A stretch of DNA of 10,092 bases from a virus (IMGVR_UViG_2671180636_000007); one strand, 5' to 3'; positions 2,074 to 10,092 are shown, numbered from the stretch's first letter. Notes: generated by a model from the sequence alone, not told the origin. A program made the numbers and translations.

Positions 2074-2359
2074 ATGAATCTTGGAGAATATTTGCATCAT
2101 TTTCATATAACCCAGAGTTCATTTGCTGAGATTGTTGGCGCATCCCAAGGGATGGTCAGCNNNNNNNNNNNNNNNNNNNNNNNNNNNNNNNNNNNNNNNN
2201 NNNNAACTTACAGGAGAAAAAATATTACGTTGGTGTGAAGCAACGGGATGGGTGGTGACCCCACATGAGATTGACAGTAAAACCTACCCCAACCCAACTG
2301 ACGGCTTGCCTGCTGAGTTTCAGGCTAACACACAACCATCGGCGGGGGTTGATTCATGA
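2074..2359 (+). CDS. Cro/YdaS-like HTH DNA-binding regulator, with an apparent reading-frame discontinuity inside the 44-nt masked block 2161-2204
   Basis: ATG at 2074 preceded by AGGGCGG (2064-2070). The N-terminal 29 aa MNLGEYLHHFHITQSSFAEIVGASQGMVS has an XRE/Cro-type helix-turn-helix signature (SQSSFAEIVGxSQGMVS pattern). After the mask the protein-like reading (LTGEKILRWCEATGWVVTPHEID...) is in the next frame and ends with TGA at 2357-2359, overlapping the downstream ATG at 2356 (ATGA coupling). The original frame stops at 2236-2238. The total would be about 95 aa if continuous. Confidence 0.55.
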
Positions 2360-2781
2360 AAATCAAGCATGAACACATCCGCATGGCGATGAAAGCCTGG
2401 GCGCATCCGGACGGTGAAAAAGTTCCGGCAGCTGAAATAACCAGGGTTTATTTCGAACTGGGAATGACGTTTCCGGTTCTGCATAACGACAGCAAGCACA
2501 ACACGCTTTATCTCAACACCCAAAAGATTTTCCGTTGGCTGGATAAAGACACCCCTGACGCTGTTGAAAAAATTCAGGCGTTGTTACCTGCGATCGAAAG
2601 GGCAATGCCACCTCCGCTGGTGGCTCGAATGCGCAGCCACAGTTCAGCTTATTTTCGGGAACTGGTGGAGACGCATGAACGACTGGTGAGAGACGCTGAT
2701 GATTTTGTCGCAGTGGCAATCGCCGGTTTCAATCAGATGAACCGTGGTGGCCCGGCAGGAAATGCTGTGGCAGTACATTGA
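2356..2781 (+). CDS. YdaT-like (CII-like) prophage regulatory protein, 141 aa; family assignment tentative
   Basis: Complete unmasked ORF with ATG 2356 and TGA 2779-2781. GGGGGT lies 6 nt upstream and the start overlaps the upstream stop in ATGA. It sits immediately after a Cro-like gene and before the replication genes, which is the YdaT position in Rac-type prophages. The N-terminus MKIKHEHI and the size match my recollection of the YdaT family, not a search. Confidence 0.7.
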   Translation: MKIKHEHIRMAMKAWAHPDGEKVPAAEITRVYFELGMTFPVLHNDSKHNTLYLNTQKIFRWLDKDTPDAVEKIQALLPAIERAMPPPLVARMRSHSSAYFRELVETHERLVRDADDFVAVAIAGFNQMNRGGPAGNAVAVH

Positions 2782-2852
2782 CTGACAATAGCCATATCGA
2801 ATCGCTCCCGGCAACTCGTGAGTAAAAAGATTCGGTATCAGAAGAGGTGAGT

Positions 2853-3749
2853 ATGGCTAACGCCTGGCTCAGATTATGGCATGACATGCCAAATGACCCT
2901 AAGTGGCGAACAATTGCCAGGGTGTCAGGGCAGCCAATTGCAACAGTGATGGCAGTGTATATCCACCTCCTGGTGAGCGCGTCACGAAATGTCACGCGAG
3001 GTCACATTGATGTCACGACAGAAGATTTGGCAAGTGCGCTCGACGTGACAGAAGAGGTAATTGATTCAATTTTGCAGACGATGCAGGGGCGGGTACTTGA
3101 TGGTGATTTAATCACTGGATGGGAAAAACGCCAGGTGCTTAAAGAGGACAACGGCAATATTTCGCAAACCGCAAAATCTCCTGCAGAGCGCAAGAGGGCG
3201 CAGCGAGAGAGGGAAAGAAAGCGGGAACAAAATGGCGATTGTCANNNNNNNNNNNNNNNNNNNNNNNNNNNNNNNNNNNNNNNNNNNNNNNNNNNNNNNN
3301 NNNNNNNNNNNNNNNNNNNNNNNNNNNNNNNNNNNNNNNNNNNNNNNNNNNNNNNNNNNNNNNNNNNNNNNNNNNNNNNNNNNNNNNNNNNNNNNNNNNN
3401 NNNNNNNNNNNNNNNNNNNNCCGGAAGCCGATTNNNNNNNNNNNNNNNNNNNNNNNNNNNNNNNNNNNNNNNNNNNNNNNNNNNNNNNNNNNNNNNNNNN
3501 NNNNNNNNNNNNNNNNNNNNNNNNNNNNNNNNNNNNNNNNNNNNNNNNNNNNNNNNNNNNNNNNNNNNNNNNNNNNNNNNNNNNNNNNNNNNNNNNNNNN
3601 NNNNNNNNNNNNNNNNNNNNNNNNNNNNNNNNNNNNNNNNNNNNNNNNNNNNNNNNNNNNNNNNNNNNNNNNNNNNNNNNNNNNNNNNNNNNNNNNNNNN
3701 NNNNNNNNNNNCGAGGGGGTGCCACCAGAGACCATGCTGGATGGTGTGA
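2853..3749 (+). CDS. Phage replisome organizer / replication initiator (O-like; replisome-organizer N-terminal domain family)
   Basis: ATG 2853 with AAGAGGT 5 nt upstream. The visible N-terminal 130 aa (MANAWLRLWHDMPNDPKWRTIARV...DLASALDVTEEVIDSILQTMQGRVLDGDLITGWEKRQ) fits the replisome-organizer N-terminal pattern W-x-K/R-L...DPK......E-D-L-A...L-x-V-x-E-E......G-L-I...W-E-K-R-Q. A basic, charged linker follows (ERKRAQRERERKREQ). The 3' end is uncertain: the frame passes through masked blocks 3244-3420 and 3434-3711 and stops at TGA 3747-3749. Confidence 0.7.
   Translation: MANAWLRLWHDMPNDPKWRTIARVSGQPIATVMAVYIHLLVSASRNVTRGHIDVTTEDLASALDVTEEVIDSILQTMQGRVLDGDLITGWEKRQVLKEDNGNISQTAKSPAERKRAQRERERKREQNGDCXXXXXXXXXXXXXXXXXXXXXXXXXXXXXXXXXXXXXXXXXXXXXXXXXXXXXXXXXXXXGSRXXXXXXXXXXXXXXXXXXXXXXXXXXXXXXXXXXXXXXXXXXXXXXXXXXXXXXXXXXXXXXXXXXXXXXXXXXXXXXXXXXXXXXXXXXXXXXRGCHQRPCWMV
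2981..3050. repeat. Iteron-like GTCAC(G) repeats inside the replisome-organizer gene; candidate replication origin
   Basis: Seen: GTCACG at 2981, GTCACG at 2991, GTCAC at 3001 and GTCACG at 3012 (10-11 bp phasing), plus an inverted copy CGTGACA at 3044-3050. GACAGAAGA is duplicated at 3017-3025 and 3046-3054. An AT-rich stretch 'gtaattgattcaattttg' follows at about 3057-3074. The repeats fall in all three codon positions, so they are not explained by amino-acid repetition alone. Confidence 0.45.
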
Positions 3750-4152
3750 GGCGTTACGCGAGATACCTGGCGGCGACCGGGAAAGCNNNNNNNNNNNNNN
3801 NNNNNNNNNNNNNNNNNNNNNNNNNNNNNNNNNNNNNNNNNNNNNNNNNNNNNNNNNNNNNNNNNNNNNNNNNNNNNNNNNNNNNNNNNNNNNNNNNNNN
3901 NNNNNNNNNNNNNNNNNNNNNNNNNNNNNNNNNNNNNNNNNNNNNNNNNNNNNNNNNNNNNNNNNNNNNNNNNNNNNNNNNNNNNNNNNNNNNNNNNNNN
4001 NNNNNNNNNNNNNNNNNNNNNNNNNNNNNNNNNNNNNNNNNNNNNNNNNNNNNNNNNNNNNNNNNNNNNNNNNNNNNNNNNNNNNNNNNNNNNNNNNNNN
4101 NNNNNNNNNNNNNNNNNNNNNNNNNNNNNNNNNNNNNNNNNNNNNNNNNNNN

Positions 4153-4890
4153 NNNNNNNNNNNNNNNNNNNNNNNNNNNNNNNNNNNNNNNNNNNNNNNN
4201 NNNNNNNNNNNNNNNNNNNNNNNNNNNNNNNNNNNNNNNNNNNNNNNNNNNNNNNNNNNNNNNNNNNNNNNNNNNNNNNNNNNNNNNNNNNNNNNNNNNN
4301 NNNNNNNNNNNNNNNNNNNNNNNNNNNNNNNNNNNNNNNNNNNNNNNNNNNNNNNNNNNNNNNNNNNNNNNNNNNNNNNNNNNNNNNNNNNNNNNNNNNN
4401 NNNNNNNNNNNNNNNNNNNNNNNNNNNNNNNNNNNNNNNNNNNNNNNNNNNNNNNNNNNNNNNNNNNNNNNNNNNNNNNNNNNNNNNNNNNNNNNNNNNN
4501 NNNNNNNNNNNNNNNNNNNNNNNNNNNNNNNNNNNNNNNNNNNNNNNNNNNNNNNNNNNNNNNNNNNNNNNNNNNNNNNNNNNNNNNNNNNNNNNNNNNN
4601 NNNNNNNNNNNNNNNNNNNNNNNNNNNNNNNNNNNNNNNNNNNNNNNNNNNNNNNNNNNNNNNNNNNNNNNNNNNCGAAAAACGAGCAGGTGGTATTGCA
4701 CCAGATAATTGATCGCCGGACAGCATCACTGTGCAGTGTCGGGATGTTAACAAACCTGAATCATGCCGCAATGAGCACGCTTCTTGGTGAGAGGATTATG
4801 GACCGCATGACCATGAACGGTTGTCGGTGGGTGACGTTTAACTGGGATAGCTGGCGTTCAAATGTCAGCTTTCCGGGAGTTGTGAAGTAA
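4153..4890 (+). CDS. DnaC-family replicative helicase loader (YdaV/P-like); only the C-terminal 71 codons (4676-4890) are visible and the start coordinate is an estimate
   Basis: The visible C-terminus KNEQVVLHQIIDRRTASLCSVGMLTNLNHAAMSTLLGERIMDRMTMNGCRWVTFNWDSWRSNVS matches, nearly motif for motif, the C-terminus of E. coli DnaC as I recall it (...QIVDRR...GMLTN.N.EEM.KLLGERVMDRM......VIFNWDSYRS.V). Stop TAA at 4888-4890. The start lies in masked block 3787-4675; 4153 is extrapolated from a DnaC-like length of about 245 aa. Confidence 0.6.
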   Translation, partial: XXXXXXXXXXXXXXXXXXXXXXXXXXXXXXXXXXXXXXXXXXXXXXXXXXXXXXXXXXXXXXXXXXXXXXXXXXXXXXXXXXXXXXXXXXXXXXXXXXXXXXXXXXXXXXXXXXXXXXXXXXXXXXXXXXXXXXXXXXXXXXXXXXXXXXXXXXXXXXXXXXXXXXXXXXXXXXXKNEQVVLHQIIDRRTASLCSVGMLTNLNHAAMSTLLGERIMDRMTMNGCRWVTFNWDSWRSNVSFPGVVK

Positions 4891-4911
4891 TTTTTGTTGG
4901 AGGATGTTTTA

Positions 4912-6183
4912 ATGGAAACTGTATTTGACGCACTGAAAGCACTGAAAAGAGCCTCTTCACATGTGGTGGCGTCCCGCCTTGGAATCAGCCGTGAAGATGC
5001 GGTCAACGAACTGTGGAAACTGAAGCGCCGTGGTGAAGCGGATAACAAGGGTTCGATGTGGTGGCTGATTCAGGCTGGTGAAAGTGAACCAGTGTCACCG
5101 GTACCGAAAGTGACAGCGCAAATGCTGACTGAGGCGATTGAACAACATGGCCCACAAACGGCGGATGAGCTGGCACTGATGTTCGGGATTACCTCNNNNN
5201 NNNNNNNNNNNNNNNNNNNNNNNNNNNNNNNNNNNNNNNNNNNNNNNNNNNNNNNNNNNNNNNNNNNNNNNNNNNNNNNNNNNNNNNNNNNNNNNNNNNN
5301 NNNNNNNNNNNNNNNNNNNNNNNNNNNNNNNNNNNNNNNNNAAGCCGCATCCATAGCGGAAACGGATGGTAAAGTNNNNNNNNNNNNNNNNNNNNNNNNN
5401 NNNNNNNNNNNNNNNNNNNNNNNNNNNNNNNNNNNNNNNNNNNNNNNNNNNNNNNNNNNNNNNNNNNNNNNNNNNNNNNNNNNNNNNNNNNNNNNNNNNN
5501 NNNNNNNNNNNNNNNNNNNNNNNNNNNNNNNNNNNNNNNNNNNNNNNNNNNNNNNNNNNNNNNNNNNNNNNNNNNNNNNNNNNNNNNNNNNNNNNNNNNN
5601 NNNNNNNNNNNNNNNNNNNNNNNNNNNNNNNNNNNNNNNNNNNNNNNNNNNNNNNNNNNNNNNNNNNNNNNNNNNNNNNNNNNNNNNNNNNNNNNNNNNN
5701 NNNNNNNNNNNNNNNNNNNNNNNNNNNNNNNNNNNNNNNNNNNNNNNNNNNNNNNNNNNNNNNNNNNNNNNNNNNNNNNNNNNNNNNNNNNNNNNNNNNN
5801 NNNNNNNNNNNNNNNNNNNNNNNNNNNNNNNNNNNNNNNNNNNNNNNNNNNNNNNNNNNNNNNNNNNNNNNNNNNNNNNNNNNNNNNNNNNNNNNNNNNN
5901 NNNNNNNNNNNNNNNNNNNNNNNNNNNNNNNNNNNNNNNNNNNNNNNNNNNNNNNNNNNNNCAGGCTCGTAAGGACTGGCAAAACGCCCGCAAAAAACTC
6001 TCGAGGGCAAAGCTGAAGAAACCATCTGTGGTTGATCCGGACCTTATCTGGTCATTACCGGACGGAGAAATACGCCGCTACGACAGACATCAGAACATAA
6101 TCTGTCGCGAGTGCCGGAAGAGTGAAGTTATGCAGCGTGTACCGGCTTTCTATCAGGGTGATTTTCAGGAGGCGGTACTGTGA
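4912..6183 (+). CDS. Uncharacterised protein with two tandem winged-helix-like segments at the N-terminus; the frame stays open across two masked blocks to TGA 6181-6183, so this may be one gene of about 423 aa or two genes
   Basis: ATG 4912 with a strong GGAGGA RBS (4898-4903) 21 nt after the DnaC-like stop. Visible N-terminus METVFDALKALKRASSHVVASRLGISREDAVNELWKLKRRGE...KVTAQMLTEAIEQHGPQTADELALMFGIT (two HTH-like units). Visible C-terminal part (5962-6183) ...QARKDWQNARKKLSRAKLKKPS...IICRECRKSEVMQRVPAFYQGDFQEAVL. Masked blocks 5196-5341 and 5376-5961 could hide a stop and a restart. Confidence 0.45.
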   Translation: METVFDALKALKRASSHVVASRLGISREDAVNELWKLKRRGEADNKGSMWWLIQAGESEPVSPVPKVTAQMLTEAIEQHGPQTADELALMFGITXXXXXXXXXXXXXXXXXXXXXXXXXXXXXXXXXXXXXXXXXXXXXXXXXXAASIAETDGKXXXXXXXXXXXXXXXXXXXXXXXXXXXXXXXXXXXXXXXXXXXXXXXXXXXXXXXXXXXXXXXXXXXXXXXXXXXXXXXXXXXXXXXXXXXXXXXXXXXXXXXXXXXXXXXXXXXXXXXXXXXXXXXXXXXXXXXXXXXXXXXXXXXXXXXXXXXXXXXXXXXXXXXXXXXXXXXXXXXXXXXXXXXXXXXXXXXXQARKDWQNARKKLSRAKLKKPSVVDPDLIWSLPDGEIRRYDRHQNIICRECRKSEVMQRVPAFYQGDFQEAVL

Positions 6184-6240
6184 GTGAAATTAGCTATCAG
6201 GCTTCAATTACCGCTGGCATTCGCATCAAAGGAGAGGAGC

Positions 6241-6597
6241 ATGGAAATAAAACCAGAAGATGAGTTAAGCAATATTGTTTTATTTCCGGTAAAAGAGGAT
6301 AACCCTCGTAATCAGGTTAATTTTCTTTATGAGCCATCGGAAAGACCATATTGCCATCACGCCTCTGTACGGGTTGACGAAAAAGAGCGTCAGGTCCGCT
6401 GTAAAATCTGCGGTGCGGTTGTGGAGCCGTTTGACTGGATGCTCTCTGTGGCAAAAAGAGAAACCAGACTGGCAGATGATGTAAGGCTCTTGCGCCAGGA
6501 GGAGCGGGAAAGGCGAAAAAATATAGAAAAGCTAATCCAGATTGAGCGTAATGCGAAAGCGCGGATACGCAGGGTGACAAAATATAGCCCCGAATAA
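6241..6597 (+). CDS. Small uncharacterised protein (118 aa) with a putative zinc-ribbon (C-H-H ... C-x2-C) and a charged coiled-coil C-terminal tail
   Basis: Fully unmasked ORF with ATG 6241 and an AAAGGAGAGGAG RBS directly upstream; stop TAA 6595-6597. Sequence MEIKPEDELSNIVLFPVKEDNPRNQVNFLYEPSERPYCHHASVRVDEKERQVRCKICGAVVEPFDWMLSVAKRETRLADDVRLLRQEERERRKNIEKLIQIERNAKARIRRVTKYSPE. I cannot assign a family from memory. Confidence 0.7.
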   Translation: MEIKPEDELSNIVLFPVKEDNPRNQVNFLYEPSERPYCHHASVRVDEKERQVRCKICGAVVEPFDWMLSVAKRETRLADDVRLLRQEERERRKNIEKLIQIERNAKARIRRVTKYSPE

Positions 6598-6729
6598 TCA
6601 AGGTTATTTCTGGAAGTCAAGTCGTGAGTGATGAGGACTAACAAATACGGTGAACTCGATAAAGAGATTCAGGACGAACTGGAGGCCAGGAATGATTGAC
6701 AAATCACCAAGTGAGTTCAGCTACAAAGA

Positions 6730-6745
6730 TTTATTGTCATAACGG
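6730..6745. repeat. Upstream copy of an imperfect direct repeat (TTTATTGTCAT-AACGG) flanking the restriction-modification cassette; the partner is at 10019-10035
   Basis: Seen: 'tttattgtcataacgg' at 6730-6745 versus 'tttattgtcatcaacgg' at 10019-10035. That is 11 identical nt plus 5 after a 1-nt indel, lying about 70 nt before the possible MTase start and about 110 nt after the REase stop. Statistical support is modest (AT-rich 11-mer). Confidence 0.3.
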
Positions 6746-6801
6746 GTTATGAGATCGACTTGGTGCGTGATATTCTTCGGGCCAGTTTGCTATGCGCCAC
6801 C

Positions 6802-8547
6802 ATGAGNNNNNNNNNNNNNNNNNNNNNNNNNNNNNNNNNNNNNNNNNNNNNNNNNNNNNNNNNNNNNNNNNNNNNNNNNNNNNNNNNNNNNNNNNNNNNN
6901 NNNNNNNNNNNNNNNNNNNNNNNNNNNNNNNNNNNNNNNNNNNNNNNNNNNNNNNNNNNNNNNNNNNNNNNNNNNNNNNNNNNNNNNNNNNNNNNNNNNN
7001 NNNNNNNNNNNNNNNNNNNNNNNNNNNNNNNNNNNNNNNNNNNNNNNNNNNNNNNNNNNNNNNNNNNNNNNNNNNNNNNNNNNNNNNNNNNNNNNNNNNN
7101 NNNNNNNNNNNNNNNNNNNNNNNNNNNNNNNNNNNNNNNNNNNNNNNNNNNNNNNNNNNNNNNNNNNNNNNNNNNNNNNNNNNNNNNNNNNNNNNNNNNN
7201 NNNNNNNNNNNNNNNNNNNNNNNNTATCTGATTGGGTCAATTTATACGGTAATGCTGCCATCCGCTTACCGTTCGGAATTGGGGGCTTACTATACCCCCC
7301 CACCTTTGGTAGCGCGTCTCTTGGACCTGGCTGAAAAGTCTGGTGTTGATTTTTCTCATGCATCGGTTATTGATCCTGCGTGTGGTGGCGGTGCATTTTT
7401 GGCACCAGTAGCCATTCGAATGTTAAAAAAAGACAAGGGGTCTTCCCCTGAATGGATGTTGAGGAGAATCAGTCGTCGTTTAAAGGGGATAGAGATCGAT
7501 CCATTTGCGGCTTGGATGAGTTTGGTATTGCTCGAATCTGTACTAATGCCACTATGTGTAAAGGTAAAACGTAGATTGCCTGAAGATACAATTATTGTTG
7601 CTGATGCGCTTCAGCAAGATAAATTTTCTGGTTATGATCTTGTGGTAGGGAATCCGCCTTACGGACGTGTCACTCTCGATATTAAAACGAGAGAAAAATA
7701 TTCTCGTTCGTTATTTGGTCATGCAAATCTATATGGATTGTTCACCGACTTAGCTGTTCGCATGGTTAAAGAGAAAACAGGAGTTATTGCATTTCTTACG
7801 CCAACTTCTTTTCTTGGTGGGCAGTATTTCACCGCGCTGCGAACCCTTTTGACCGAAAAAACTACTCCGTATGCCCTTGATTTCGTCACTGACAGGGATG
7901 GGGTCTTTGACGATGTTCTCCAGGAAACAATGTTGACAGCATTCAAGGCGGGAGAACATAAAGTTCGGGCCCAGGTATCCTCACTTGTCCCTAAGGGGTT
8001 GAACAAAGCAAAAATTGAGAAAATAGGTAATGTTGATATAGAAAAAGGTGGAGCAACGTGGCTTTTGCCACGCGTTAAAGATGATGCCTGTTTTCTTAAT
8101 GTATTAAAACAGATGTCTACGCGTTTAGCTGATCTGGGATACTCAGTCTCTACAGGTCAGTTAGTCTGGAATCGATTTAAGTCGCAGTTGCGTACGACGA
8201 AAGGAAAAAATAGCTACCCATTAGTCTGGGCGGAATCAATAACTTCAGCTGGTTTTCGTTTTAGTGCAGACAGAAAAAATCATGTTCCCTATATCGATAT
8301 AACCCCACAACAGGGTTTCCTTGTGACAAAATCTGAATGTGTGCTTGTTCAGCGGACAACATCGAAGGAACAGGACAGAAGGATTTTAGCGGCAATTTTA
8401 CCTCAGGGATTTATAGATGAAACTGGTGGCGTAGTAGTTGAAAACCATATTAATATTGTATATTCAAACGGATTGTTCTCTGCGGTTCGCCCTGATGTTA
8501 TTGATATGCTACTTAATTCGCATGTTGTCGATCGGGCGTTCAGGTGT
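6802..8547 (+). CDS. Gamma-class N6-adenine DNA methyltransferase (Eco57I/PstI-methylase-like) of a restriction-modification system; both ends lie in masked sequence
   Basis: The visible 441 codons (7225-8547) contain GAYYTPPPLVARLLDL, motif I DPACGGGAFLAP (FxGxG-type SAM pocket) and motif IV NPPYGR (N6-adenine catalytic motif) in the gamma-class order. A possible in-frame ATG at 6802 (no clear SD) precedes masked block 6807-7224, so the true start could be there or inside the mask. The 3' end is in masked block 8548-9254. Confidence 0.85.
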
Positions 8548-9254
8548 NNNNNNNNNNNNNNNNNNNNNNNNNNNNNNNNNNNNNNNNNNNNNNNNNNNNN
8601 NNNNNNNNNNNNNNNNNNNNNNNNNNNNNNNNNNNNNNNNNNNNNNNNNNNNNNNNNNNNNNNNNNNNNNNNNNNNNNNNNNNNNNNNNNNNNNNNNNNN
8701 NNNNNNNNNNNNNNNNNNNNNNNNNNNNNNNNNNNNNNNNNNNNNNNNNNNNNNNNNNNNNNNNNNNNNNNNNNNNNNNNNNNNNNNNNNNNNNNNNNNN
8801 NNNNNNNNNNNNNNNNNNNNNNNNNNNNNNNNNNNNNNNNNNNNNNNNNNNNNNNNNNNNNNNNNNNNNNNNNNNNNNNNNNNNNNNNNNNNNNNNNNNN
8901 NNNNNNNNNNNNNNNNNNNNNNNNNNNNNNNNNNNNNNNNNNNNNNNNNNNNNNNNNNNNNNNNNNNNNNNNNNNNNNNNNNNNNNNNNNNNNNNNNNNN
9001 NNNNNNNNNNNNNNNNNNNNNNNNNNNNNNNNNNNNNNNNNNNNNNNNNNNNNNNNNNNNNNNNNNNNNNNNNNNNNNNNNNNNNNNNNNNNNNNNNNNN
9101 NNNNNNNNNNNNNNNNNNNNNNNNNNNNNNNNNNNNNNNNNNNNNNNNNNNNNNNNNNNNNNNNNNNNNNNNNNNNNNNNNNNNNNNNNNNNNNNNNNNN
9201 NNNNNNNNNNNNNNNNNNNNNNNNNNNNNNNNNNNNNNNNNNNNNNNNNNNNNN

Positions 9255-9909
9255 CTTTGATGCCGGGCTTGAAGGAGATTCGCTGCTGAGTGCAATAAGT
9301 TCCTGGCAAGAAAATCATTTGAACAAAGCCGCTCTTGCTAGGTTGCGTTTATTGAAATCAGGGGCAGTGATTGCTGCTGATGCCGTAGTCGTCACTTTCC
9401 CAAATGGAGAGAAGAGAACTTTAGCTCCGGGCCCGTCAAGTACAATAGCTAAGGCCGTCATCGAAGTTTTTGCTCCTAATTTTCTTAAGAATCCAACTGT
9501 GCTCTGGTTGTCTGAATCCGGGAATAAAGTTGTTGCTCAGGATGATGTATTGGCAAAAGCATTGGGGCTGAATATTGATGCCTCAAAAGCACTTCCAGAT
9601 ATTATTTTGATTGATTTGGGAGAGGACCGAACGGGTTCGGACATGCTTGTAGTTTTCACTGAAGTAGTTGCGACAGATGGGCCTATAAACAGGGAACGAA
9701 AAGTTACTCTCACTCATTTGGCTATTGACGCTGGGTTCAGCGAGAAAAATCTTGCATTCCTTACGGCATTTATGGACAGAAGTGCTCTGCCTTTTAAAAA
9801 GGCAATACCAGAATTGGCGTGGGGATCTTATGCATGGTTTGCTTCTGAACCGGAGCACTTAATTGATCTTCGGGATGGTTATCCGGTAAAGATCAGCCAG
9901 AGAAAATGA
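9255..9909 (+). CDS. Putative Type II restriction endonuclease, C-terminal 218 codons visible (BsuBI/PstI-like assignment tentative); the 5' end is masked and the protein could alternatively be the C-terminal part of an M-R fusion
   Basis: Protein-like frame immediately downstream of, and in the same frame as, the methyltransferase: ...LPDIILIDLGEDRTGSDMLVVFTEVVATDGPINRERKVTLTHLAIDAGFSEKNLAFLTAFMD...; stop TGA 9907-9909. The PD...D...E-V-V segment is reminiscent of a PD-(D/E)xK-type core, and the overall feel resembles BsuBI/PstI-family REase C-terminal domains (from memory, not a search). Position next to a gamma-class MTase supports an R role. Confidence 0.55.
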
Positions 9910-10018
9910 CCAAAGTTTGATATCCGCCACGCCCTGAAGGATGGGGGTTTTACGGTGCACTGGATAAAAAATCGGTTTCATAGATTTGCCCACCGTGGTA
10001 TACGCCTGCGATAAAAAC

Positions 10019-10035
10019 TTTATTGTCATCAACGG
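10019..10035. repeat. Downstream copy of the imperfect direct repeat flanking the restriction-modification cassette
   Basis: See the partner at 6730-6745. Confidence 0.3.
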
Positions 10036-10061
10036 CAAAAGCAATAATTGTTCTGTGGCGG

Positions 10062-10092
10062 GGTGATGCTGCCAACTTACTGATTTAGTGTA
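10062..10092 (+). mobile_element. IS1 left terminus (first 31 nt including the left inverted repeat); the rest of this copy lies beyond the window
   Basis: Seen: 'ggtgatgctgccaacttactgatttagtgta' at 10062-10092. From memory this is identical to the first 31 nt of IS1 (GGTGATGCTGCCAACTTACTGATTTAGTGTATGATGG...), in the same orientation as the IS1 end at 1-17. Confidence 0.85.

Follow-up and report, generated by a model that had tools for sequence, protein, structure and literature searches.

In prophage CP-933P of Escherichia coli O157:H7, PaaR2 acts like CI, YdaS acts like Cro, and YdaT acts like CII; the locus is bistable, and its toxin–antitoxin (TA) pair is addictive (PMC8630535). YdaS and YdaT of CP-933P are DNA-binding regulators and have been argued not to be a TA pair (PMC8630535, PMC9986795). 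YdaT binds the sequence TTGATTN6AATCAA at the end of ydaS (PMC9986795). Here, this system, together with phage lambda and the K-12 prophages Rac and Qin, is compared with a viral DNA record of 10,092 nucleotides (IMGVR_UViG_2671180636_000007), the whole of which is called the window. A preliminary description of positions 2074–4890 had read a Cro-like helix-turn-helix (HTH) gene, a gene in the YdaT position, a replisome organizer, and a DnaC-family loader. All four genes are present on the plus strand, essentially where they had been placed. We conclude, with a probability of about 90%, that they belong to the immunity and replication block of a lambdoid prophage that has become defective, has been trimmed by the insertion sequence IS1, and occupies the Qin site of a Shigella sonnei-type chromosome. 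Among studied systems, the closest relatives are the paaR-paaA-parE / ydaS-ydaT-o immunity regions carried by O157:H7 prophages of E. coli. Elements of this type, with their regulators and architecture, have been described before, and this one is of an ordinary, well-known kind.

Slightly more than half of the window (5,188 of 10,092 nucleotides, 51%) is masked as N, in eleven runs (91–547, 559–1205, 1222–2061, 2161–2204, 3245–3420, 3434–3711, 3787–4675, 5196–5341, 5376–5961, 6807–7224, and 8548–9254). The readable pieces are 1–90, 2062–2160, 2205–3244, 3712–3786, 4676–5195, 5962–6806, 7225–8547, and 9255–10092, together with four islands of 11–34 nucleotides. An exact-sequence look-up found the YdaT protein (2356–2781) in 6,106 blocks of an assembly collection and led to nine near-identical loci (L003–L011), all on chromosomes of 4.8–5.0 Mb. 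The readable bases are 99.9–100% identical to these loci, three of which (L007, L008, and L009) match 4,819 of the 4,825 compared readable bases, both IS1 junctions included. L011 (CP026802.1) is cited in two papers as Shigella sonnei ATCC 29930. L008 was used as the proxy for the masked sequence. Window positions 1, 2062, 2205, 3712, 4676, 5962, 7225, and 9255 correspond to L008 positions 7667, 9729, 9850, 11331, 12101, 13279, 14480, and 16386, respectively, and the readable islands 548–558 and 1206–1221 map to L008 8462 and 9014.

The length of an N run is not faithful when compared with the near-identical loci: 44 N stand for 22 nucleotides in the Cro-like gene, 889 N for 695 nucleotides, and the 457 N of the first run for about 710 nucleotides. 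Distances and reading frames across masks are therefore unreliable, and coordinates inside or across masks are nominal and not to scale. Calling open reading frames (ORFs) directly on the window failed, since the N runs alter lengths and frames. Four genes (those of the Cro-like protein, initiator, methyltransferase, and endonuclease) seem to carry frameshifts in the window, while their flanks agree at 100% with intact genes; we treat the apparent frameshifts as a masking artefact. When the whole window was searched by megablast against E. coli complete genomes, the best match was FDAARGOS_943, covering 39% of the window (about 80% of the readable bases) at 97.6% identity; plasmids covered at most 14% and phages at most 15%, and no full-length match was found among the E. 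coli complete genomes, plasmids, and phages. In 4,029 of the 6,106 blocks, the longest contig carrying YdaT is 5–10 kb long, the size expected if an IS1-bounded piece of about 9.6 kb assembles alone from short reads. The window, with both ends inside IS1 termini, may be such a self-assembled contig.

The IS1 copies define the borders of the block. Positions 1–17 on the plus strand are the last 17 nucleotides of the left IS1, at its right inverted repeat (IRR) end (AAGTTGGAGTCATTACC), as expected from the earlier remark that the module lies about 2 kb from an IS1 end; the full 768-bp copy is at L008 6916–7683. The 9-bp sequence AAACGGTTG at 18–26 also stands directly before IS1 in L008, and this perfect target-site duplication indicates that the left IS1 is a simple insertion without deletion. 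A second IS1, missed in the preliminary description, begins at the right end of the window, where 10062–10092 on the plus strand are its first 31 nucleotides (left inverted repeat, IRL, end; L008 17193–17960). Its flanks, GTTCTGTGGCGG and CATATAACAAAA, differ, and there is no target duplication, indicating that this copy is a deletion junction, with a truncated RelE/ParE toxin gene on one side and host DNA upstream of ydfI on the other. The deletion that it marks took out the remaining nin region and Q, along with ydfJ and the genes for lysis and morphogenesis. A third IS1 copy, farther left, also lacks a duplication and stands between a truncated ynfF and a truncated rha.

The proxy sequence past the right IS1 shares 98.4% identity with ydfI-ydfZ-rspR of K-12, and on the left side the proxy carries ynfF, ynfG, ynfH, dmsD, and clcB. 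With ynfF and ydfI as its neighbours, the element occupies the site of the Qin prophage in E. coli K-12, not that of Rac, and its ydfE-ydfD-dicB-...-ydfA-like gene order is collinear with Qin. Because the whole window is bracketed by two IS1 copies in the same orientation, the 9.6-kb segment between them might be taken for a composite transposon that brought the module here. This is extremely unlikely, given that the left IS1 has a 9-bp duplication of its own, that prophage DNA continues to the left of it, that the outer flanks of the IS1 pair differ (AAACGGTTG versus CATATAACA), and that the segment is collinear with the prophage layout at the K-12 Qin site.

If the window came from an intact, inducible prophage, the integrase and late genes would have to lie beyond the ends of the window. 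The block does occur in such a setting in H1 and H2, the closest relatives in E. coli, whose prophages include int, xis, Q, lysis, terminase, capsid, and tail genes. However, H1 and H2 are just 78–99% identical and sit at another site, next to potC. In the loci that match at 99.9–100% and share both IS1 junctions, ydfI comes directly after the right IS1, and on the left there are only dicB, ydfD, ydfE, and the truncated rha, interrupted by more IS copies and followed by the truncated ynfF. None of the nine loci retains an integrase, Q, lysis, or structural gene flanking the module; these genes are gone because of IS-mediated deletions. The probability that an intact prophage surrounds the window is thus very low, and the preliminary description was right to suspect a prophage remnant.

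It had also pointed to a restriction–modification (R-M) cassette downstream in place of late phage genes. The cassette, a methyltransferase followed by a BsuBI/PstI-family endonuclease, is real, but the same cassette sits between the replication genes and Q in full E. coli prophages. It is 99–100% identical to the cassettes inside the full prophages of E. coli FDAARGOS_943 and VL7S7, both of which hold the same block, R-M cassette included, between the immunity region and Q. The position before Q indicates that the cassette is a normal nin-region passenger and no substitute for late genes. The prophages of FDAARGOS_943 and VL7S7 adjoin potC. Their gene set includes int, xis, dicB, Q, tRNA genes, an exonuclease gene, and genes for lysis and morphogenesis, several of the late genes being interrupted by IS elements. 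The same block is also found in records deposited as phages.

A further proposal was that a captured replication module works here as an autonomous replicon, either a plasmid or an excised circle. In most proxies, the initiator and loader ORFs and the iterons are intact, and plasmids based on oriJ of Rac are on record (Potrykus et al. 2000, as cited in PMC11014345). In addition, a 15,977-bp circular record labelled as a plasmid (pZ1322PEC0161-2) consists of lambdoid early-to-lysis genes alone, this type of loader included. Against the proposal, all nine near-identical loci are on 4.8–5.0 Mb chromosomes with host genes on either side, 9,036 of 9,082 E. coli matches are chromosomal, and the few records labelled as plasmids include mislabelled chromosomes (4.8–4.9 Mb) or large fragments. 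Moreover, an intact repressor gene adjoins the module. Autonomous replication of such modules is conceivable, but nothing points to it here, and we regard a plasmid or captured replicon as very unlikely compared with a chromosomal prophage remnant. The circular record (NZ_CP148542.1) has repressor, Cro, loader, DUF1627, DUF977, hokD, RusA, Q, holin, and lysozyme genes, and no plasmid replicon typing. It may represent a prophage piece that was excised or over-replicated, or else an assembly artefact.

The preliminary description proposed to look under the mask at 91–2061 for a divergent repressor, and the proxy contains one there. The ORFs of this region, on the minus strand at L008 7816–9629, encode in order a 166-residue HTH_3 repressor, a PaaA2-family antitoxin, a ParE toxin, a DUF1391 protein, and a 121-residue protein of unknown function. 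In a PDB search, the N-terminal domain of the repressor aligns with the N-terminal domain of lambda CI (E 3e-9), and its C-terminal region weakly matches the DicA model. The C-terminal 64 residues are 56% identical to a PaaR-type regulator from a paralogous locus of E. coli EDL933, and the N-terminal HTH domain is unrelated to it. An S24 peptidase domain is not detected in the repressor by Pfam or NCBIfam. The TA genes are directly downstream of the repressor gene, on the strand opposite to cro. The antitoxin matches Pfam PF21217 (PaaA2) with 81.9 bits and PDB PaaA2 (3zbe) with E 1e-23, and the toxin matches Pfam PF05016 (ParE_toxin) with 64.1 bits and PDB ParE2 (5cw7) with E 7e-37. The DUF1391 gene (YdfA/YdaF-like) shares 90% identity with YdfA of Qin and 86% with YdaF of Rac.

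Upstream of the repressor gene, the proxy has a leftward promoter-like site, TTCAAA-17-TAGAAT, the −10 hexamer of which ends 7 nucleotides ahead of the repressor ATG. The CP-933P paaR2 transcript is described as leaderless in PMC8630535, and by analogy the position of the −10 hexamer would fit a leaderless transcript here. It is only a weak hint, since the promoter scan found no more sites than in shuffled sequence; counts from the consensus terminator scan likewise did not exceed those from shuffles. No clear operator repeats were found in the repressor/Cro intergenic region.

The Cro-like HTH regulator, in the position of YdaS, is encoded on the plus strand from the ATG at 2074 to the stop at 2359 (L008 9741–10004). 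The gene is truly 264 nucleotides long (87 residues); the window shows 286 nucleotides because 44 N stand for 22 bases. The protein matches phrog_35 (E 8e-17) and reaches 20.8 bits for Pfam HTH_3, below the cut-off of 23. The adjacent YdaT-family regulator, a CII analogue of 141 residues, is fully readable (2356–2781, plus strand). It passes the gathering cut-off of Pfam PF06254 (36.9 versus 21 bits), matches phrog_163 (CII-like transcriptional activator, E 3e-40), and matches PDB entries 3c4r (E 4e-79) and 8bt1 (E 3e-70) over the full length.

The YdaT operator O_M, TTGATTCATGAAAATCAA, is at 2349–2366 on the plus strand and spans the stop codon of the Cro-like gene and the start codon of YdaT. 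TTGATTN6AATCAA is matched exactly nowhere else in the window, and 200 shuffles produced no match. Its position at the cro/ydaT junction is the same as that published for CP-933P. The names given to this family, YdaT_toxin in Pfam (PF06254) and 'toxin YdaT family protein' in RefSeq, would suggest that ydaS-ydaT is a TA pair rather than a pair of Cro/CII-type regulators. Such an assignment is highly improbable, because the CP-933P proteins are DNA-binding regulators argued not to be a TA pair in PMC8630535 and PMC9986795, the YdaT operator is conserved exactly, and PHROGs places YdaT in a class of CII-like activators.

Downstream of ydaT, an O-like replication initiator ('replisome organizer') is encoded on the plus strand at 2853–3786, with its 3′ end in the mask 3787–4675; in the proxy it has 354 residues (L008 10498–11562). 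It matches phrog_3729 (replication initiation protein) over the full length with E 3e-250, and the RefSeq name of the FDAARGOS_943 homologue is 'phage replisome organizer'. Pfam gives no match at E ≤ 0.01, and DUF1376, for which K-12 YdaU scores 92 bits, is not found even at E ≤ 10. In a PDB search, only the C-terminal tail was matched, to DnaT. The C-terminus (...VNHISEPDTEIPPGFRG / ...SEPDTEIPPGFRG; L008 11500–11562, masked in the window) is nearly the same as that of host DnaT (...VNTVSEPDSQIPPGFRG), and the tail IPPGFRG is common to the initiator and this host restart (primosomal) protein. The same DnaT-like tail is present on Rac YdaU and on the initiator (O protein) of the phage record vB_EcoS-640R1, which has no phage loader gene. 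The tail may be a shared handle for recruitment of DnaB–DnaC; a 2026 paper on the preprimosome states no function for the extreme C-terminal tail of DnaT.

Nine GTCAC(G/A) iterons lie inside the initiator gene on the plus strand, with start-to-start distances of 10, 10, and 11 bp, then 229 bp, then 10, 10, 11, and 10 bp. Cluster A, with the first four repeats, is readable at 2981–3019. Cluster B, with five GTCACG repeats, is within the mask 3245–3420 (L008 10885–10935 by proxy). It is followed, in the same mask and on the same strand, by an A+T-rich tract with two copies of AGATACAGATAA; cluster B and the tract together occupy L008 10885–10961. The tract is 62.5% A+T, compared with a mean of 45% for the initiator gene, and cluster B and the tract are likely to form the origin core. 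All nine exact GTCACG hexamers found on either strand of the 9.6-kb element are within about 310 nucleotides of the initiator gene; judged by base composition, the element as a whole should contain about four. Eight GTCACG on the plus strand and one GTCACA make up the nine iterons.

The DnaC/YdaV-type helicase loader follows on the plus strand. Its start is masked, its C-terminal 71 codons are readable at 4676–4890, its stop is at 4890, and it has 248 residues in the proxy (L008 11569–12315). It passes the cut-off of NCBIfam NF009043 (499 versus 389 bits) and that of PF01695, the IstB/DnaC family of AAA+ proteins (69.9 versus 24.1 bits). The score for the DnaC equivalog model (296 bits) is below the cut-off of 357, indicating that the loader is a DnaC paralogue and not DnaC itself. 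It is 80% identical to Rac YdaV over all 248 residues.

In CP-933P/Sp12 and the O157:H7 paralogues, as here, a repressor, PaaA, and ParE are encoded leftward, and a Cro-like protein, YdaT, an initiator, and a DnaC-type loader are encoded rightward. CP-933P also has the operator TTGATTN6AATCAA at the same junction, and the proteins encoded here match PDB entries of PaaA2, ParE2, and YdaT. We considered the EDL933 locus L018 as CP-933P and rejected it, as its PaaA differs from PaaA2 in the PDB; L018 is a paralogous locus. Identities to L018 are 81% for YdaT, 86% for ParE, 77% for PaaA, and 95% for the loader. The C-terminal 199 residues of the initiator, its C-terminal half, are 91% identical to the L018 paralogue, whereas the N-terminal 155 residues, which span the iteron region, are unrelated. 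This split is the modular exchange typical of lambdoid phages. The DNA-binding domain of the repressor, the Cro-like protein, and the N-terminal domain of the initiator are modules other than those of CP-933P and EDL933, and CP-933P also differs in its chromosomal site and state of decay.

By analogy with CP-933P and lambda, we infer how repression, bistability, and origin firing might work in this block. The leftward operon would produce a CI/PaaR-type repressor and the PaaA–ParE pair, and the repressor would shut off the rightward promoter. If not repressed, that promoter would drive transcription of four genes, from that of the Cro-like protein through ydaT and the initiator gene to the loader gene. 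The repressor would make up a bistable switch with the Cro-like protein. YdaT, bound to its operator at the cro/ydaT junction, would turn on an alternative leftward promoter for the repressor operon. When the rightward operon is on, the N-terminal domain of the initiator would bind the GTCACG iterons in its own gene, and the C-terminal domain with its DnaT-like tail would work with the DnaC-type loader to put host DnaB on the A+T-rich tract beside the iterons. As no phage can be produced, the block would persist as a mostly silent chromosomal passenger.

Several observations weigh against parts of this reading. Everything under the masks is inferred from proxies and not read in the window. The CP-933P operator consensus GTTTAGTAA is absent here: no half-site was found in the repressor/Cro intergenic region (L008 9630–9740) with up to one mismatch, and the operators therefore differ from those of CP-933P. 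In addition, the Cro-like protein is only 36% identical to an EDL933 YdaS-family protein. Bistability is thus extrapolated from a system with another operator and another Cro-like protein, and both immunity and origin specificity probably differ from those of CP-933P. As to replication, the Pfam match of the initiator to Phage_rep_org_N (PF09681) has 12.8 bits against a gathering threshold of 23.3 (E 0.12), although the match obtained with the limit relaxed to E ≤ 10 covers profile positions 1–118 of 121. Finally, the iterons overlap coding sequence, and the repeat could partly reflect the repeated peptide SRNVT.

The preliminary description had called the module Rac-type, which is correct only as to gene order. 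The functional order is that of racR-ydaS-ydaT-ydaU-ydaV-ydaW in K-12, and YdaT belongs to the same Pfam family. By BLASTP, the loader, DUF1627 protein, and DUF1391 protein are 80%, 57%, and 86% identical to YdaV, YdaW, and YdaF, respectively, and the initiator has only the last 19 residues of YdaU. However, YdaT is just 33% identical to that of Rac, the initiator is without DUF1376, the Cro-like protein and the repressor have no BLASTP match to K-12 YdaS and RacR (E ≤ 1), Rac is without the PaaA–ParE pair that this element carries, and the element is not at the Rac site. Of the family assignments made at the time, those of YdaT and the loader stand, and that of the initiator stands through PHROGs, but the Cro-like protein is not matched to YdaS. 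Neither the Cro-like protein nor the repressor nor the initiator is homologous to its Rac counterpart, and identities to the paaR-paaA-parE locus of EDL933 far exceed those to Rac. A Qin-site lambdoid remnant with a PaaR/YdaS/YdaT-type immunity region is the better label.

The element lies in the same orientation as Qin (Kim) of K-12 and at the same chromosomal site, between ydfI/ydfJ and the ynf genes; the two also have in common the ydfA-like gene and, on the left, the dicB-ydfD-ydfE block. Unlike the element, K-12 Qin has dicA and dicC, is without replication genes, and keeps Q, lysis genes, and tail-fibre remnants. The element has another repressor/Cro pair and an R-M cassette, keeps its replication genes, and has lost everything from the nin region onward. 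The layout of divergent repressor, Cro, CII analogue, initiator, and loader is that of cI-cro-cII-O-P in lambda. In lambda as well, the initiator gene contains the iterons and, after them, an A+T-rich tract, and the two initiator domains are exchanged separately between phages. In contrast, there is no sequence similarity to lambda for Cro, CII, and O, the loader is a DnaC/IstB-type AAA+ ATPase and not lambda P, the S24 domain is missing from the matches of the repressor, and a TA pair is co-transcribed with the repressor.

The import of these results beyond annotation is small. A heavily masked window is resolved as a standard defective lambdoid prophage fragment, the label Rac-type is replaced by that of a Qin-site element whose immunity region is of the paaR-paaA-parE / ydaS-ydaT type, and the trimming of a prophage by IS1 in a Shigella-type genome is recorded. 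Two leads are mildly useful: the initiator and loader apparently pair via a DnaT-like tail, and addiction modules may shape which prophage pieces outlast genome reduction. The block has two post-segregational-killing modules near its ends, PaaA–ParE next to the repressor and, at the right, the R-M cassette of the PstI family. It is a doubtful idea, and one we would not expect to hold, that the block is not a random leftover, that these two modules set where IS1 deletions were survivable, and that the origin may still fire if the repressor fails, the initiator, iterons, and loader all being intact. If so, the exact segment would have become fixed in the S. sonnei lineage because the killing modules limited the survivable IS1 deletions, and origin firing would lead to local over-replication of this region of the chromosome.

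Downstream of the loader, two early accessory genes occupy 4912–6183 on the plus strand, with the middle masked. The first encodes the DUF1627 protein (YdaW-like, 241 residues), and the second encodes a DUF977 protein (LygF/Ren-like, 140 residues) that is 91% identical to its EDL933 counterpart. They are followed by the gene of a zinc-ribbon protein of 118 residues and unknown function (6241–6597, plus strand; phrog_1621). The six differences from L007, L008, and L009, the only ones in 4,825 readable bases, cluster in 91 nucleotides of this gene (6363–6453) and are all silent. They look like a short gene-conversion patch from a paralogous prophage copy.

The type II R-M cassette extends over 6807–9909 on the plus strand, with the start of the methyltransferase gene and the junction of the two genes masked. 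The N6-adenine methyltransferase has 610 residues (Pfam N6_Mtase and Eco57I), and the endonuclease, which ends at 9909, has 360 residues (Pfam BsuBI_PstI_RE). In L010, a deletion at 12315–12714 removes DUF1627, DUF977, the gene of the 118-residue protein, and the 5′ part of the methyltransferase gene, and leaves the endonuclease gene intact. Between the cassette and the right IS1, a 3′ remnant of the RelE/ParE-family toxin gene is at 9950–10061 on the minus strand. The full gene is at L001 26351–26662, and the match of the window stops at L001 26462, where the gene is cut by the right IS1. Relatives carry a partner ParD antitoxin gene next to this toxin gene; it is deleted here.

Rfam finds no known RNA inside the stretch equivalent to the window. 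Left of the left IS1, it finds a C4 antisense RNA (76.7 bits) and isrK (61.4 bits) on the minus strand at L008 6199–6387. They adjoin a Rha/ASH-type antirepressor gene truncated by another IS1, and the C4/isrK pair and the truncated antirepressor gene are probably the leftover of an antirepressor circuit for prophage induction.

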